Of a stretch of 64,000 nt of DNA, positions 44,715 through 52,290 are shown in pieces. The stretch is taken from contig CM000154.2 of assembly GCA_000004695.1 (NCBI GenBank), forward strand, positions 2,560,001-2,624,000, in the 5' to 3' direction. The position numbers were made by a program, and so were the translations under genes. Numbering within the stretch: the stretch's first letter is position 1; each line of letters opens with the position of its first letter. This DNA comes from Dictyostelium discoideum. Its lineage: Eukaryota. Below the pieces are notes generated by a model, which saw nothing but the letters and a program-made list of their open reading frames with translations, searched no databases and was not told where the DNA came from.

Positions 44715-46297
44715 TTAAATTAATAATCTTTTATCAATTTTATCTTTAAATGAATTATAAATTGTTGGATTAATTAAAGATAAAATTTTATCTTTAATTC
44801 TTTGTAATTCTTCAGGTGATGAAATTTTTGAATTTTTTAATTGTTTGAAATATTCATAATAGTTTCTATCAGATAAAGGGTAAAAATCAATTGGTTCGCC
44901 ATTAATCAATGGTAAAGATTTAATACTACGTTCAGAGATTTCAACGATTTGTTGTAGTTCTTCATTATCAGATGCATCACAATTAAATACTGATTGAATA
45001 TGTTTGGGTACACCTTTTTGAAGAATATTTGAAAGTTGTTCAGAGGAGAACATCTTTTTAAATTCAACCGATTGTTGTCTAAAATCGATCATTTTTCTTA
45101 AATGTTTAATCTTATTAAATGTACGTTCATCTTGATTATCTGGTGAATCTATATCCATTACTTTACCAAGTTTATCTTCAAGTTGATCGAATTATCAGGA
45201 AGTGACTTTTCTTTAACTGACATATCTTTAATTTCAACAGTTCTTGAATGTGAATATTTTGAACAAACTAAACCAATACCAGTATCTAATGGATTTGTTA
45301 AACTTGGTTCATGATATACTATTGAGTCATTTAGTAATGGTTCTTTACATTTTTCACAAAGATAACCAGATAGGTTACTTTGAAATTCACAAAGTGGACA
45401 TTGACAAAAGAAATAGTAACCATCCAATAATTCTCGTCTACGATTTTTTAAAGGGTATTCATTTGCCAAATATCCAAGAGATAGTTCATCACCTTTTTTA
45501 ACATTTGAGGACGTTGAAAATAGTAACATACCTTGATCATCCAATGACCATGTCGTATTTGGCATACAAGAATGATTGAAATAACCAGTTGGACAAACAC
45601 CTCTACCAATCTCTTTACTTGTAGCATAGGAAAATTGATGAGCATTTGTCAAAACTGAGGAAAAGCATTCCAATATTTCATGGATTGTAATAGTGTTTTT
45701 TAAGTATCCAACACCACGTACTGATGATATTAAACTACTTATTGAAGTTACACCACGTTTAAATTTTGTCATATGTTCTTTATCAACTTTATCCAATGTA
45801 CTCGTTAAACCCATGAAATCCTGATAATCATCAACTATATTATCTTTCAATTGACTGCTTTCCACAATAAACAGTTGGGTTACTTGGAGTTTGCATTCCT
45901 TGTTTACCATTTGCGATGTTTGCAATGATTCTTAACAATAACCTCATATCACGTGTATCTGAACCTAAATGAAAAGTACTTAAAATTTTATAAAAACCAC
46001 AAACCTCTTTATGATAATCTGAAATGGTTCCACAGCACTTTCATTTATCGATCTACATGATTTACAAACTGAATAAAGCTTACAATTTTTACAAAGACAT
46101 TCTTTACTATCAGATTTCGGAATTCTCTGTAAACAGAAACCACAATACTTTTCAGTTGCCAATTTATCAGAATCTTCAATTGATGAAGCGAATGGCGCAC
46201 ATCTAAATACAGTACTACCCTTTGGCAAATCAGTATTGGCTTGCACAGTTCTTCCTTTATTTGGAAATTGTTGAAATTGTTTCTCATCCTTTTTCAT
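44715..46297 (-). pseudogene. SET + MYND zinc-finger (SMYD-like) methyltransferase gene with at least two reading-frame disruptions (possible pseudogene, or homopolymer sequencing errors)
   Basis: Three consecutive ORFs in different frames. 45980-46297 holds the MYND Cys cluster (CGFCLQRIPKSDSKECLCKNCKLYSVCKSC). 45158-45925 holds the SET core (GRGVCPTGYFNHSCMPNTTWSLDDQGMLLF..GDELSLGYL) and post-SET (CQCPLCEF). 44715-45158 is the C-terminal region. Junctions at ~45930-45980 and ~45160-45200 have no room for introns. Confidence 0.5.
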
Positions 46298-46560
46298 TTT
46301 AGCATTAAATTGTTCCTCCTCTTCTTGAGTTTTCTTTATCTTTTCTCTATTTTCTCTTTATCTTGTTGATACTCTTTTTTATAATTTTCATTACTTTCAA
46401 TTGAAATCGCTTCCTCAATTGATTTTAAAGCATCATCTAATAGACATAAATCTCTTTTACCACGGGAATGTCTAAAATAAATCTTTGAAATTATTTTTAT
46501 AATTTCCTCTCTTATCAATTGAAATACCTTTTTCACTATTTTCAGCAAAAACAGATTGTT

Positions 46561-46685
46561 ATTTTATTTCTATTTTCATTTCTATTTCTATTTTTTTTAT
46601 TTTTTTATTATTTTTTTTACAATATGATTAATAACGAATACAATGAAAAAAAGGAAAACCTTTTTTGGATGGTATTTCAATAACT
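46561..46685 (+). repeat. duplicated fragment of the promoter and first ~25 codons of gene B (cf. 40621-40740)
   Basis: ..ttttacaatATGATTAATAACGAATACAATGAAAAAAAGGAAAACCTTTTTTGGATGGTATTTCA is ~90% identical to the gene-B start, then breaks off. Confidence 0.7.
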
Positions 46686-47070
46686 CCTTCACCTGTAAAA
46701 CTCCATCTTTACCAGGTACTGTTGTATAAATTACCCCATCAGGAGAACATCCAATTCTTTTGTCACCTGGCAATGGAAAGATACCTTTTTCGATAATTGA
46801 AGTCTCCAACTCATTAAAATAAAATTCTCTTGCTATTGGTTCTTGGCTTTTACCATGTTCCATTGCCTTTTTACAGTAGTCACTAAAGAATGGTGTTTTC
46901 TTTTTAGCCAATATTAATTTTAAATCATGTTGTGAAGTGTATGGATCAATTCCAATGGCAGCAGCTAATCTACTTCCAGTTAAAGAATACTTCTCTCTTG
47001 CTTTTTCCCATTTTTTAGTTCCTTGTACCAAATCTTCATCGATACATCGGTTTTGTATGGAGTTGTATTT
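46686..47070 (-). pseudogene. YqaJ-like (lambda-exonuclease-type) recombination nuclease domain fragment; lacks a start, C-terminal part replaced by the gene-B fragment
   Basis: ..KKWEKAREKYSLTGSRLAAAIGIDPYTSQHDLKLILAKKKTPFFSDYCKKAMEHGKSQEPIAREFYF...IGCSPDGVIY...GVLQVKE resembles the YqaJ domain (..TGSDIAAILGLSPYKTPYELWLEKTG..). Confidence 0.45.
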
Positions 47071-47541
47071 TTACAAACTGCTAATGATTTGAAAATCATA
47101 AACAATCAAACCTATTCAAATTGTCTAACGTTTTACTATCAAATGATTTCGAATATTAATTTCGAAAATGCTGAAGTAACCATATTAAAAGTCATACCAC
47201 CCAAAGATAGGTGTATGGAACAAATTAACCAAAGAGGTAGAACCTTTGAAGTCGGTAGTTTATCTATAGACTATGTTTCCAAATTAACCGATAAAATTCG
47301 ATCTCATTGTGTTAGCCAAGTTTTATCAAGACTTGAAAAACCAATAAAATGCTGTATCGATAGAGAATACAAAAGCAATGATGACCTGTTCAATGACATT
47401 TTCTTTAATGAAAATCCAAACTCAATTCCCACACCATCAAATACTCCAACTCAATCTCTTCAAAGTTCACACTCAAATCTTAGTTTTTATTACCCATCGA
47501 ATCAAGAGCAATATTTTAATATTCAAGATTATTTGAATTAA
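47023..47541 (+). pseudogene. deoxynucleoside kinase (dCK/dGK family) C-terminal fragment; no N-terminal P-loop part present
   Basis: ..NAEVTILKVIPPKDRCMEQINQRGRTFEVGSLSIDYVSKLTDKIRSH matches the dNK motif ..IYLxxxPExCxxRIxxRGRxEExxIPLEYLExLHxxHE; the frame opens right after a stop, with no ATG. Confidence 0.45.
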
Positions 47542-47638
47542 TAAAACTAAATTCTAAATAATACTATAAAAAAAAAAATAAAAAAAAAAATAAAAAAATA
47601 AAAATATATTTAAATTAAATAAAAAAAAGAAAAAAAAA

Positions 47639-47824
47639 ATGTCTACATTTGCCGATCTTCGTTCTGTTTCAGGTGCCTTACTAGGTGGTATGGGTAGTAT
47701 TGGTGTTGCCGCTCTTGGTGCTTACTTTATTTATACAAGTGAAATTGGAAGCGTTGATTTCTATATGGGTGTTGGTTTTGCTGCCTTTGGTTGTCTCTTG
47801 GTTTCGGATCATTATTCAAAATAA
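47639..47824 (+). CDS. small hydrophobic protein (61 aa, two predicted TM segments)
   Basis: MSTFADLRSVSGALLGGMGSIGVAALGAYFIYTSEIGSVDFYMGVGFAAFGCLLVSDHYSK; codon usage typical of expressed Dictyostelium genes (ggt, gct, gtt). Confidence 0.45.
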   Translation: MSTFADLRSVSGALLGGMGSIGVAALGAYFIYTSEIGSVDFYMGVGFAAFGCLLVSDHYSK

Positions 47825-47949
47825 AAATGATTAAAGAAAAGAAAAAAAAAGAAAATAAAAATTAAGATAACTAGATTTCAATTATTTTAATTATTATTTA
47901 TTAATATTATTTATTTTATTTAAAATAAAAACAAAAATAGTTGATGGTT

Positions 47950-50760: not shown

Positions 50761-50883
50761 TACAAAATAAACAATTAATTTTAGTTTATTGAAATTAAAT
50801 TGTATATAATAATGAAAAAAAAAAATATTAAATAGTAAAAAAAAATATTTGTAATTTAATTATTTGTTTCCAATTCAACTGTC

Positions 50884-51114
50884 ATGAATTGTGATTTAAA
50901 TGTATTGACAATCATTTTCAAAGAGATTGAAAATTATCTAATTCAATTCTTCCTAAATTCAAATCGTATAGAGATGAATGATTTTGAAAGACATCAATGG
51001 TATATTGATAATGTATTAAGTACAAAGTTAGAAAAACCAACCGAGTTAAGATACTTTTATACAATTCTATATAAAGTAAAAACCCAACAAGATATTGACT
51101 ACTCTTGCCAGTAA
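50884..51114 (+). repeat. duplicated internal fragment (~230 bp, ~85% identity) of gene B (cf. 42241-42470), ending in a stop
   Basis: MNCDLNVLTIIFKEIENYLIQFFLNSNRIEMNDFERHQWYIDNVL.. versus gene B MNCDLNILTIIFKEIENYPIKFFLSTSCREMNDFKRHQWYIDNVL.. Confidence 0.7.
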
Positions 51115-51741
51115 ATGGTATCTCTGAAAGAGAAAATGAGAAAATATCTCAACAAGCCAGAGAATTCATGAAATCTATGCTCTGAAGTTGATTGATGCAA
51201 TCCATTGTTATCACAGGTGGTAAATCTGTAACAATCTTTTCAACCATATGGTTTAAATGAAGAATAAATTTTAAACATCGCAATCTATCATTGAATTTGT
51301 TTGGAGAAACCTGATCGTATCCAAGTCACTTCAGTTGTATCAACGTATACCCTGCAAGACATCCATTGTTTGATATCTTTAAAAATCCACCAGAGTTCGG
51401 CTATGGTTGTCCAATATGTAAACTAAAACAAAAAGTTTGTTCCGCCGTTGATTCTGTTAGTCGTTCTGGGTATACCCGTACTCATACTTGTTATTCCATT
51501 CATCAATTATGTAGAACTAGTGATCCACCTTCTCAAGGCTATTGATATTGGTGGTAATTTCCTTTGTTCTAATTATAACAAATTTATTTGTAACAGAAAC
51601 ACAAGCAACAACACCACCACCTATTTCAAGACAAAAAATTTAGGATTCTGATTATAGTCAATCGCCACTTCTACTGCAAATTATCGTGGAGCAATGAGAC
51701 TATTAATTCAATTCAAAAGGATTTATACTTGGTAAATAATG

Positions 51742-51778
<37 letters not shown>

Positions 51779-51779
51779 G

Positions 51780-51825
<46 letters not shown>

Positions 51826-51989
51826 AGCATCAACAACCATTCAACAGGTTTATCAAGTGGTGTTTCATTACAATAATAATTAAATAAATATTGAATATTA
51901 TTGAAAAATAAATAAATATATTTTTTTTTTATAGTTTAATTTTTTTTGAATTTTAATTATTTTGAATTTTTTTATATTAGAAATTCGAT

Positions 51990-52290
51990 GTGTGTATTAA
52001 TCATCCATATCTCTTTAAAGAAGAATGGGATATCAATGAAGATTTAATTAGAAGTAGTGGTAAATTTGATACTATGGATCTAATTCTTACAAAGATGCAA
52101 GCCTCCAAACATCGTGTACTCATTTTCACTCAAATGATAGAGGTTATCAATTTTATGGAAGAGTATTTCTCTCTCAAAGAATGGGGTTATCTTCCTTAAG
52201 ATGGTTCTACTAAACCAGAGGAACGTGCTAATCTCATTGTCGAATGGAATCGTCCAGATTCACCTCATTGGATTTTTGTTTTATCAACTC
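51990..52290 (+). pseudogene. SNF2-family ATPase helicase-C domain fragment with an in-frame stop
   Basis: ..SGKFDTMDLILTKMQASKHRVLIFTQMIEVINFMEEYFSLKEWGYLP*DGSTKPEERANLIVEWNRPDSPHWIFVLST. The conserved YLRLDGST is replaced by YLP-stop-DGST; no upstream ATPase motifs present. Confidence 0.55.

Follow-up and report, generated by a model that had tools for sequence, protein, structure and literature searches.

Damaged host genes and a putatively virus-derived block form a pseudogene patchwork on chromosome 5 of Dictyostelium discoideum

The stretch analysed here covers positions 44715-52290 of a 64-kilobase (kb) window, by which we mean the whole stretch of DNA that was examined (64,000 nucleotides), and which exact protein look-ups placed on chromosome 5 of Dictyostelium discoideum AX4. 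It lies between an intact gene, here called gene B, and the gene cupC, and is a non-functional patchwork of pseudogenes, made up mainly of damaged host genes together with one virus-derived block. Our preferred reading, to which we assign a probability of roughly 0.7, is that the stretch represents debris at a rearrangement-prone locus, neither a working system nor one foreign insertion, and that the virus-derived block is part of this debris. An initial annotation had itemised seven disrupted fragments, and had interpreted them as a decaying insertion of foreign or mobile DNA with viral genes. All seven were found again in 44715-52290, and the comparison with the loci of related species that it had called for revealed a decaying, rearranged patch that is missing in two sibling species. 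The remark that almost nothing is intact needs a correction, as three annotated small open reading frames (ORFs) are uninterrupted. The density of disrupted items is unusual, with seven of them, including a virus-derived one, within 7.5 kb. The viral interpretation holds for a virus-related YqaJ-type exonuclease fragment, and by linkage for the adjoining deoxynucleoside kinase (dNK) fragment, but not as a single 7.5-kb insertion. The features are listed below in the order in which they occur.

44715-46543, minus strand: SET/MYND pseudogene (Pfam SET domain, alignment to intact homologs, and synteny)
46544-56682, no strand: lineage-specific block, missing from the syntenic loci of two sibling species (collinear alignments)
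46571/46575-46679, plus strand: copy of the 5' end of gene B (87.7% identical over 106 base pairs (bp) to 40622-40727 in a self-comparison)
46674-47045, minus strand: YqaJ/lambda-exonuclease-type fragment, truncated at both ends (Pfam PF09588, E=6.5e-26)
47041-47045, no strand: GATAC deletion junction (GATAC occurs once in the window and at both segment ends in two paralogous loci, L003 and L004)
47041-47541, plus strand: 3' fragment of a divergent dNK-like gene (Pfam dNK, E=1.8e-4)
47639-47824, plus strand: DDB_G0289295, intact small hydrophobic ORF of 61 amino acids (aa) (exact AX4 protein match)
47950-48345, minus strand: DDB_G0295813, intact 131-aa ORF of a small Cys-containing family (exact AX4 protein match)
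48428-49360, minus strand: DDB_G0295815, ORF of 109 aa ('MGARQKK...'), with its upstream region (exact AX4 protein match)
49390-50760, minus strand: GIY-YIG/Gly-Ala-rich pseudogene (two frameshifts, original start codon lost)
50882-51102, plus strand: internal fragment of gene B (88.2% identical over 221 bp to 42242-42462)
51103-51741, minus strand: degenerate coding remnant (G+C content 0.34, stops in every frame)
51742-51837, plus strand: (CAA)32 tract (Tandem Repeats Finder)
51981-52295, plus strand: SNF2 fragment, helicase C lobe (Helicase_C, E=1.1e-5, 26.1 bits, cut-off 23.5)
52450-54759, minus strand: cupC, the 'lectin' gene of the initial annotation (exact protein look-up)

An AX4-like assembly, GCA_054883475.1, was used as an independent cross-check of the sequence. 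It is 100% identical to the window over 42450-59711 but departs from the AX4 reference at the gap near 35.8 kb, and was thus not copied from it. The frame breaks are therefore true features of the DNA, and not the result of poor sequence, as had been argued initially. They are not introns either, since homologous coding sequence crosses each shift without interruption.

The SET/MYND pseudogene retains a SET domain that is recognised by Pfam (E=2.5e-6, 28.3 bits, cut-off 22.4). A MYND domain gave no Pfam match on this fragment, and the MYND Cys/His pattern CGFC...CKNC...CKSC...HKEVC, which spans a frameshift, was assigned by eye. Reading in three frames, combined with alignment to homologs (the intact proteins P0030, P0031, and P0033, and the 449-aa AX4 model P0032), located five frame changes, at ~46480, 46335, 46040, 45845, and 45185; the broken gene had been recognised before, but with two breaks instead of five. 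In addition, there is an 8-codon deletion, and approximately the first 130-190 codons are gone, the 5' truncation being located at 46543. Intact homologs of 718, 744, and 715 aa are present in GCA_054859385.1, D. cf. discoideum, and D. citrinum, respectively. A protein search with the frame-corrected translation as query revealed no further AX4 copy among the homologs found, and because no intact AX4 copy was found, we consider the gene a unitary pseudogene. AX4 thus apparently lacks an intact version of a gene that is conserved in D. citrinum, D. cf. discoideum, and a divergent isolate labelled 'D. discoideum' (GCA_054859385.1).

The syntenic loci of this divergent isolate (L007) and of D. 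cf. discoideum (L008) are collinear with the window over 37779-46543 (90.8% identity) and 39603-46543 (~91% identity), respectively, and in both the SET/MYND gene lies between gene B and the same right flank as in the window. The alignments end at 46543 and restart at 56683, with identical breakpoints in L007 and L008, and since they stop at 46543, the left breakpoint is located inside the SET/MYND gene. Being syntenic and intact in relatives, this gene is not foreign, contrary to what had been proposed. The lineage-specific block between the two breakpoints extends past the stretch studied, and contains the patchwork to the right of SET/MYND, cupC, and a piece from the 3' end of another cup gene. 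The latter (56286-56615, 109 codons) is 85% identical to the 3' end of cupC, and there is no cup gene at the syntenic site of either sibling species.

The 5' copy of gene B comprises ~50 bp of upstream sequence and the first 56 bp of the coding sequence, and is 87-88% identical to gene B of L007 and L008. It had been described as a duplication of the first 125 bp of gene B, and the copy is indeed present, but it spans 106 bp, of which only the last 56 bp are coding. Its own A/T-rich upstream sequence adjoins the truncated SET/MYND gene at 46543/46544, and it joins the YqaJ fragment through a microhomology of ~6 bp, ATTTCA. The internal fragment, noted before as 230 bp long, was recovered at 221 bp. 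In D. cf. discoideum, a partial second copy of gene B, here named B', is located between the SET/MYND gene and the right flank, and is 84.5% identical to window 41857-44596. Window 50884-51102 is marginally nearer to B' (89.0%) than to gene B (88.1%) of this species. Judging from these similarities, the two pieces probably remain from a tandem paralog B' that was resident at this site, and were not captured; leftovers of B', which is still present in D. cf. discoideum, fit better than the trapped host pieces that had been suggested. A DDE_Tnp_4 (Harbinger/PIF-type) transposase-like gene is situated between the SET/MYND gene and B' in D. cf. discoideum (L008 8518-10022); a remnant of it is found in the divergent isolate (L007rc 12354-12927), and none is left in AX4. 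Gene B itself (40672-44589) encodes a protein of 1305 aa without Pfam domain, the exact sequence of which was not found in a protein collection that includes AX4. It starts with LFWKVFxNKYIFKNI, a motif typical of Dictyostelium FNIP-repeat proteins, and in all three genomes the locus is bordered by FNIP genes.

The YqaJ fragment scores 91.8 bits against PF09588 (cut-off 22) and covers profile positions 1-114 of 150. In agreement with the initial annotation, it lacks a start codon and abuts the gene B copy. Its C-terminus is replaced by antisense gene B sequence, leaving the catalytic core incomplete, and what is missing of it in the window is kept in the paralog P0020. Because both ends are lost, including the C-terminal part of the catalytic core, the window copy cannot be active. 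In the PDB it matches 3SYY, a Laribacter prophage exonuclease (8e-10), and mimivirus R354 (0.011). A search of 5.8 billion proteins yielded 11 homologs, all from Dictyostelium, which are 71-99% identical, are spread over many contigs, and have lengths of 105-206 aa, being truncated in different ways. The adjoining start-less dNK fragment, also reported before, was found as well, though its Pfam score of 21.7 bits is below the PF01712 cut-off of 27; it covers profile positions 80-165 of 203, and the P-loop is gone. No relative of it was detected in the PDB or in a scan of IMG/VR. Its divergence is too great for a match to any kinase of solved structure, which makes a recent origin from a deoxynucleoside kinase of the host seem unlikely.

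Whether the block occurs in multiple copies was assessed from the YqaJ protein search and from four fetched paralogous loci: L002 and L005 in the AX4-like assembly, L003 in the divergent isolate, and L004 in D. cf. discoideum. The DNA identity between the window and L002-L005 is 95-98% for YqaJ and 74-98.7% overall across 46674-49360, that of dNK to L003 and L004 is 93-98.7%, and the stretch comprising dNK and the 61-aa ORF is 91-99% identical to the paralogous loci. The gene set consisting of the 131-like, GIY-like, and 61-aa ORFs, dNK, PrimPol, and YqaJ recurs in L003, L004, and L005. The YqaJ and dNK fragments are thus one copy of a dispersed multi-copy block. L004 keeps the first exon of YqaJ as well as the 5' end of dNK with the P-loop GPIGAGKTT (Pfam E=8.6e-10, 39.1 bits), and its PrimPol-like ORFs match human PrimPol in three collinear motifs (E=2.6e-8). 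Every Dictyostelium copy that we have seen is fragmentary, and the copy boundaries differ among loci. DDB_G0289295 travels with the dNK fragment, and its copies in L003 and L004 show 97% aa identity. Region 48551-49360 recurs at all four paralogous loci (74-95% identity), with a fuller 84-aa version in L002. The 131-, 61-, and 109-aa ORFs gave no match in Pfam, NCBIfam, or PDB.

The paralogous loci also show how the two start-less fragments arose. In L003 and L004 the sequence GATAC flanks a segment of 2.0-2.4 kb, containing YqaJ exon 1, the PrimPol-like gene, and the P-loop end of dNK, which is lost from the window, where a single GATAC is left at 47041-47045. One deletion between these repeats explains both the start-less YqaJ and dNK fragments and their head-to-head layout.

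The link with viruses comes from the paralogous loci, and no hallmark gene is found inside the window; a tblastn search with viral proteins detected neither a major capsid protein (MCP) nor an A32 ATPase within 44715-52290. Approximately 2 kb downstream of YqaJ, L002 carries a packaging ATPase of the FtsK/A32 type, of which the C-terminal 170 residues are present and for which the Pfam match to Pox_A32 is sub-threshold (E=0.0017, 18.3 bits, cut-off 22.8). When IMG/VR was scanned with the fullest YqaJ sequence, two contigs were found in which YqaJ is followed by an ATPase, and the L002 fragment is 41% identical to the IMG/VR ATPase over 171 aa (E=1e-39). An IMG/VR scan with the single ATPase fragment as query gave no relatives, and a scan with an ATPase profile gave 62 contigs with 33-42% identity to the Dictyostelium fragment, the longest measuring 35-44 kb. 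A YqaJ homolog is encoded by 57 of the 63 viral loci as well (25-34% identity, best E=3e-18), and in all but one of these 57 it is located on the same strand, ~2.5 kb (median) upstream of the ATPase, as in L002. The YqaJ fragment of the window matches seven viral loci, the best match being 34% over 116 aa (E=1e-10). Homologs of a small membrane protein next to the L002 ATPase, and of a 333-aa ORF in L004, are present at the corresponding positions on viral contigs, and the L002 order of YqaJ, ~2 kb, ATPase, and membrane protein is the order in 56 of the 57 viral loci. In L004, YqaJ, an MCP remnant, and a p472-like ORF are direct neighbours, as on viral contig L010, which encodes an MCP of the nucleocytoplasmic large DNA virus (NCLDV) type (Capsid_N 2e-17, Capsid_NCLDV 8e-12), an A22-type resolvase, VLTF3, an A32 ATPase, and YqaJ. 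The MCP remnant, a 129-aa ORF beside YqaJ, is similar to the capsid protein in its N-terminal jelly roll (Pfam Capsid_N, E=0.0065). Comparison with 23 viral MCPs by hhalign gave P=1.3e-4 and a score of 36.1, with 30 shuffles reaching at most 27.8, and BLASTP against one viral MCP was not significant (E=0.11). The packaging ATPase fragment, the small membrane protein, the capsid remnant, the PrimPol-like primase, the dNK with an intact P-loop, and the 333-aa ORF, which occur at the paralogous loci in the following intervals, look like scattered pieces of one viral genome.

L002, 12107-13274
L004, 8412-13036
L005, 8244-10518

The similarities in sequence and gene order support the view that the YqaJ piece, and dNK by linkage, would trace to a relative of large DNA viruses. 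The dNK and PrimPol genes are linked to viral relics in every copy. We infer a viral origin for these two genes also. On the basis of contig size and gene content, compared with those described in PMC11253617, the source virus may have resembled small Nucleocytoviricota of the mriyavirus type. We give even odds to the proposal that the D. discoideum group carries dispersed relics of a small, apparently undescribed mriyavirus-type relative of giant viruses, and that these comprise a capsid remnant, an A32 ATPase fragment, YqaJ, two further virus-specific ORFs, and perhaps PrimPol and dNK.

Several findings weigh against this interpretation of the locus. In the window, YqaJ alone has a demonstrated viral relative, and it is the only member of the collinear viral gene set retained there. 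YqaJ nucleases are common also in phages, bacteria, and some transposons. The dNK, PrimPol, GIY-like, 131-, 61-, and 109-aa ORFs were unmatched in the viral loci (10 kb on either side of the ATPase). The capsid evidence is weak when taken alone, no full-length capsid gene is present at any Dictyostelium locus fetched, and tblastn with the L010 proteins detected neither VLTF3 nor a RuvC-like/A22 resolvase in the window or in L002-L005. The base composition is host-like and not virus-like: the G+C content is 0.26-0.33 across 45-54 kb and 0.29-0.40 in the individual pieces, which is coding-like for the D. discoideum genome, compared to ~0.54 in the related viral contigs. Since the composition is host-like, any viral integration must be old. 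Identity to the paralogous loci is uneven, from 98.7% at the DNA level down to 35% at the protein level, so the 4.2-kb segment set that contains the block is not one simple recent duplication. Finally, the two comparators are ~8% diverged even in housekeeping genes, with the glutamine-synthetase-like gene (31112-32677) as gauge, which is the level of sibling species and not of close strains.

If the viral reading is true, these relics are direct genomic evidence that dictyostelids once hosted mriyavirus-type viruses. To our knowledge, no natural virus of Dictyostelium has been isolated. Should they be confirmed genome-wide, the relics would constitute a viral fossil record for a model social amoeba, and would provide a concrete candidate virus group to seek in soil isolates. 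The stretch itself does nothing; it is dead DNA leading to a testable lead on past virus infection of dictyostelids. These loci were not described in the literature that we found on Dictyostelium in combination with YqaJ, NCLDV insertions, endogenous viral elements, or packaging ATPases, the coverage of which was incomplete. A screen of D. discoideum proteins found essentially only FNIP-repeat proteins and two hypothetical proteins to be virus-related, and did not report these loci (PMC5203793). Decayed giant-virus insertions in amoebae have been documented (PMC5203793, PMC11702301), as have integrated Polinton-like viruses in protists (PMC10120064). This kind of feature is therefore already known, and these loci are apparently new.

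The fully host-like composition, the fact that all YqaJ matches in the search of 5.8 billion proteins came from Dictyostelium, the existence of PrimPol as a cellular gene, and the resemblance of the GIY-like/131-like ORFs to a host gene pair could also be accommodated if nothing here were viral, and the block were an old Dictyostelium multigene family spread by segmental duplication, with the IMG/VR genes being captured from hosts or acquired unrelatedly. We consider this unlikely, since four to five adjacent genes (YqaJ, the ATPase, the membrane protein, the p472-like ORF, and the capsid remnant) have counterparts that adjoin each other on contigs carrying NCLDV hallmark genes, packaging ATPases and capsid proteins serve no function in cells, and the Dictyostelium copies seen are all fragments.

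Two of the remaining pieces bear on whether the whole stretch is foreign. Aligned with an intact homolog from D. purpureum, the GIY-YIG gene falls into three collinear segments in frames 0/2/0, confirming the two frame breaks that had been noted, which compensate each other. As to the earlier 'LEA-like' label, the Gly/Ala-rich tail shows only internal repeats of 66 bp and 33 bp. The family is characterised by a signal peptide, a GIY-YIG-fold domain, and a Gly/Ala-rich repeat tail, and the conserved GIY, YIG, Arg, Glu, and Asn positions of the fold are present, but the sequence-profile match to PF01541 stays under the cut-off (13.4 bits against 22.6, E=0.095). A match to DUF5792 on ORF 49692-50384 (E=1.5e-5, below cut-off) was gone after frame correction, and was discarded as a low-complexity or frame artefact. 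An exhaustive representative search with a 170-aa ORF showed that the GIY-like family is restricted to Dictyostelium, and no viral relative was found in the viral loci or in the IMG/VR scan, the 10-sequence alignment being too divergent for search patterns. In D. purpureum (L011 8276-10055, GL871198.1), the intact GIY-like gene is situated amid ordinary host genes, and is divergently paired with a gene for a 123-aa homolog of the 131-aa ORF (30% identity, E=3e-7); there is no YqaJ, dNK, or PrimPol near it in L011. The 131-aa ORF also has paralogs in L005. Because of the host-gene setting in D. purpureum and because no viral relative was found, we regard the GIY-like/131-like pair as a Dictyostelium family that adjoins the viral relics of the D. 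discoideum group by chance and was copied along with them, and we do not follow the earlier assignment of the GIY-YIG gene to viral or mobile DNA. D. purpureum and the D. discoideum group share the divergent arrangement of the genes for the small Cys protein and the GIY-YIG-fold protein, and a predicted secreted GIY-YIG-fold family restricted to Dictyostelium is odd in itself.

The SNF2 fragment consists of ~100 codons with an in-frame TAA at 52197-52199, the stop that had been noticed initially, is truncated at 52295, and has no N-terminal ATPase lobe. Its best PDB matches are SMARCA2, Sth1, BRG1, and Snf2 (5e-21 to 1e-18), above ISWI, INO80, and CHD, and by this sequence comparison it is of the cellular Snf2/Brm/Sth1 type. 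It is preceded by the 3' end of an intron, '...tatattag', which is directly followed by AAATTCGATGTGTGTATTAATCATCC, and since it starts directly after an intron acceptor, the piece is an unprocessed copy of a host exon, and not viral or mobile DNA as had been assumed. To its left lies the degenerate stretch with stops in every frame, followed by the CAA tract, both as described before. The search for similarity of 51103-51741 to Pfam, NCBIfam, PDB, the viral loci, and the paralogous loci gave nothing. The idea that this remnant is a decayed DDE_Tnp_4 gene was rejected, as tblastx showed no similarity and the protein is different in appearance.

SET, YqaJ, dNK, GIY-YIG, and SNF2 functions all occur in large DNA viruses, the block is missing in the sibling species, and YqaJ has viral relatives. 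Together, these points would fit one decaying giant-virus or transposon insertion of the whole 7.5 kb, in which all five genes are foreign and bits of gene B were trapped. YqaJ corresponds to NCVOG1192 (PMC3493329). Such an insertion is quite improbable. Relatives have the SET/MYND gene intact and in syntenic position, and the breakpoint falls inside it; the SNF2 piece, with its intron sequence, belongs to the cellular Snf2/Brm type; the GIY-like family occurs only in Dictyostelium, its D. purpureum member being surrounded by host genes; D. cf. discoideum has B' as a resident copy; and terminal inverted repeats were not found. For SET/MYND and SNF2, a single insertion is already contradicted by these data.

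Some eukaryotic DNA transposons carry YqaJ nucleases. The multi-copy and dispersed occurrence of the block, an rve-integrase gene a few kb from the L005 copy, and the DDE_Tnp_4 gene at the syntenic site in D. cf. discoideum might suggest that the YqaJ/dNK block was the cargo of a DNA transposon, and that the patchwork arose by repeated transposition. Since no terminal inverted repeats were found, with only A/T-rich low-complexity inverted matches in 44600-56800, there is no sign of a transposon. Moreover, the junctions lie within genes at microhomologies of 5-6 bp, the copy boundaries vary among loci, and the DDE_Tnp_4 gene has nothing in common with the window, which makes this explanation very unlikely.

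An artefactual origin of the breaks, through errors of sequencing or assembly or through short introns in genes that are in fact intact, can be dismissed despite the 449-aa SET protein and 158-aa exonuclease annotated in AX4 and the products of 467, 183, and 418 aa called in GCA_054883475.1, because the independent assembly is 100% identical, homologous coding sequence continues over each shift with no AT-rich intron-like insert, and the models omit conserved residues or take antisense dNK sequence as 5' exon. At least two of the AX4 gene models look like artefacts. P0032 (449 aa, 44715-46297, 'SET domain-containing protein') bypasses frameshifted segments as if they were introns, and P0021 (158 aa, 46336-47099, 'exonuclease, phage-type/RecB, C-terminal domain-containing protein') has a first exon that consists of antisense dNK sequence. 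The automated models of GCA_054883475.1 bridge the breaks in the same manner.

Under our reading of debris at a rearrangement-prone locus, the ancestral layout would have been that of D. cf. discoideum: gene B, the SET/MYND gene in reverse orientation, the DDE_Tnp_4 gene, B', and the right flank. In the AX4 lineage, a deletion from within the 5' coding part of SET/MYND to the promoter of B' may have beheaded the former, which afterwards would have gained its five frameshifts, and B' would have been broken up, with two pieces surviving. Between these pieces a segment set of ~4.2 kb (46680-50881) would have been placed, paralogous to the block at at least three other loci per genome. This block brings together the Dictyostelium-specific gene pair, which encodes a GIY-YIG-fold protein, predicted to be secreted, and a small Cys protein, with small ORFs and with what would be left of an integrated virus. 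The viral part would consist of YqaJ, probably also of PrimPol and dNK, and at other loci of a packaging ATPase, a capsid remnant, and two further genes, and the virus would have been akin to small Nucleocytoviricota of the mriyavirus type. The deletion of 2.0-2.4 kb between the two GATAC repeats would then have fused truncated YqaJ head-to-head with truncated dNK, and a 0.64-kb remnant, the CAA tract, and an exon fragment of the cellular Snf2 type would fill the space up to cupC. The data themselves show the breakpoints, the intact orthologs, B', the multiple copies of the block, the deletion junction, and the likeness to viral contigs in sequence and gene order. The order of these events, end joining or template switching at microhomologies, and the direction of transfer from virus to host are what we infer. 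The locus documents microhomology-mediated deletion and repeated segmental copying among a few loci in a very AT-rich genome.

The relics resemble the endogenous Nucleocytoviricota-type insertions of Acanthamoeba (PMC5203793, PMC11702301) in that fragmentary capsid and packaging ATPase remnants with stops and frameshifts are embedded in a host chromosome, with a composition ameliorated towards that of the host. In contrast to these insertions, the Dictyostelium relics are tiny, scattered, multi-copy by later segmental duplication, and mixed with host fragments. Mriyaviruses (Yaraviridae/'Gamadviridae') have genomes of 35-45 kb (PMC11253617), and the closest IMG/VR contigs reach 35-44 kb and encode, in a stretch of ~15 kb, an NCLDV-type MCP, an A32 ATPase, VLTF3, an A22/RuvC resolvase, and a PDDEXK/YqaJ nuclease. 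Yaravirus, a mriyavirus, infects an amoeba. However, the PDDEXK nuclease of mriyaviruses is apparently not orthologous to NCLDV YqaJ, PrimPol and dNK are not among their core genes (PMC11253617), and VLTF3 and RuvC were not found at the Dictyostelium loci fetched. Polinton-like viruses and virophages of protists (PMC10120064, PMC4642659) also have a double-jelly-roll capsid and an FtsK-type ATPase, and endogenize and multiply in protist genomes, but the capsid of the contigs related to our relics matches NCLDV Pfam families, the presence of VLTF3 and A22 marks Nucleocytoviricota, and neither an integrase nor a protein-primed polymerase was detected beside the copies in Dictyostelium. The window shows a clear domain match to the YqaJ family (PF09588; 3SYY; mimivirus R354), though its copy is without both ends. 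As in duplicated and unitary pseudogenes, the SNF2 and gene B pieces are unprocessed, and the junctions carry microhomologies of 5-6 bp; compared to ordinary pseudogenes, the density is unusual here, as is the virus-derived nature of one of the items.

Some further observations concern the genomes compared and the remainder of the window. GCA_054859385.1, which is labelled D. discoideum and has the locus-tag prefix ACTFIR, differs from AX4 by ~8% at the DNA level, and its glutamine-synthetase-like protein is 95.3% identical to that of AX4, compared to 98.3% for D. cf. discoideum; this isolate may be a cryptic species. The window contains five runs of 100 N, corresponding to AX4 assembly gaps (1279-1378, 18278-18377, 19447-19546, 35780-35879, and 59712-59811), of which the one at 59712 is closed in GCA_054883475.1 with a different length. 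A 4-kb segment, 33707-37778, which begins ~10 bp from a tRNA-Arg(TCT) gene (33624-33696), is missing from the syntenic loci of both sibling species. It carries a gene for 444 aa (34114-35448) that is repeated at 35898-36929, across the N gap at 35780-35879, and it is 99.6% identical over 1438 bp to L005 12555-14351, located 2 kb from the YqaJ copy of L005. When L005 is flipped, the 444-aa gene, YqaJ (minus strand), and dNK (plus strand) follow each other in the same order and orientation as in the window, where three host genes, p366, gene B, and SET/MYND, separate the 444-aa gene from YqaJ. In the independent assembly, the duplication of the 444-aa gene around the AX4 gap is present in collapsed form.

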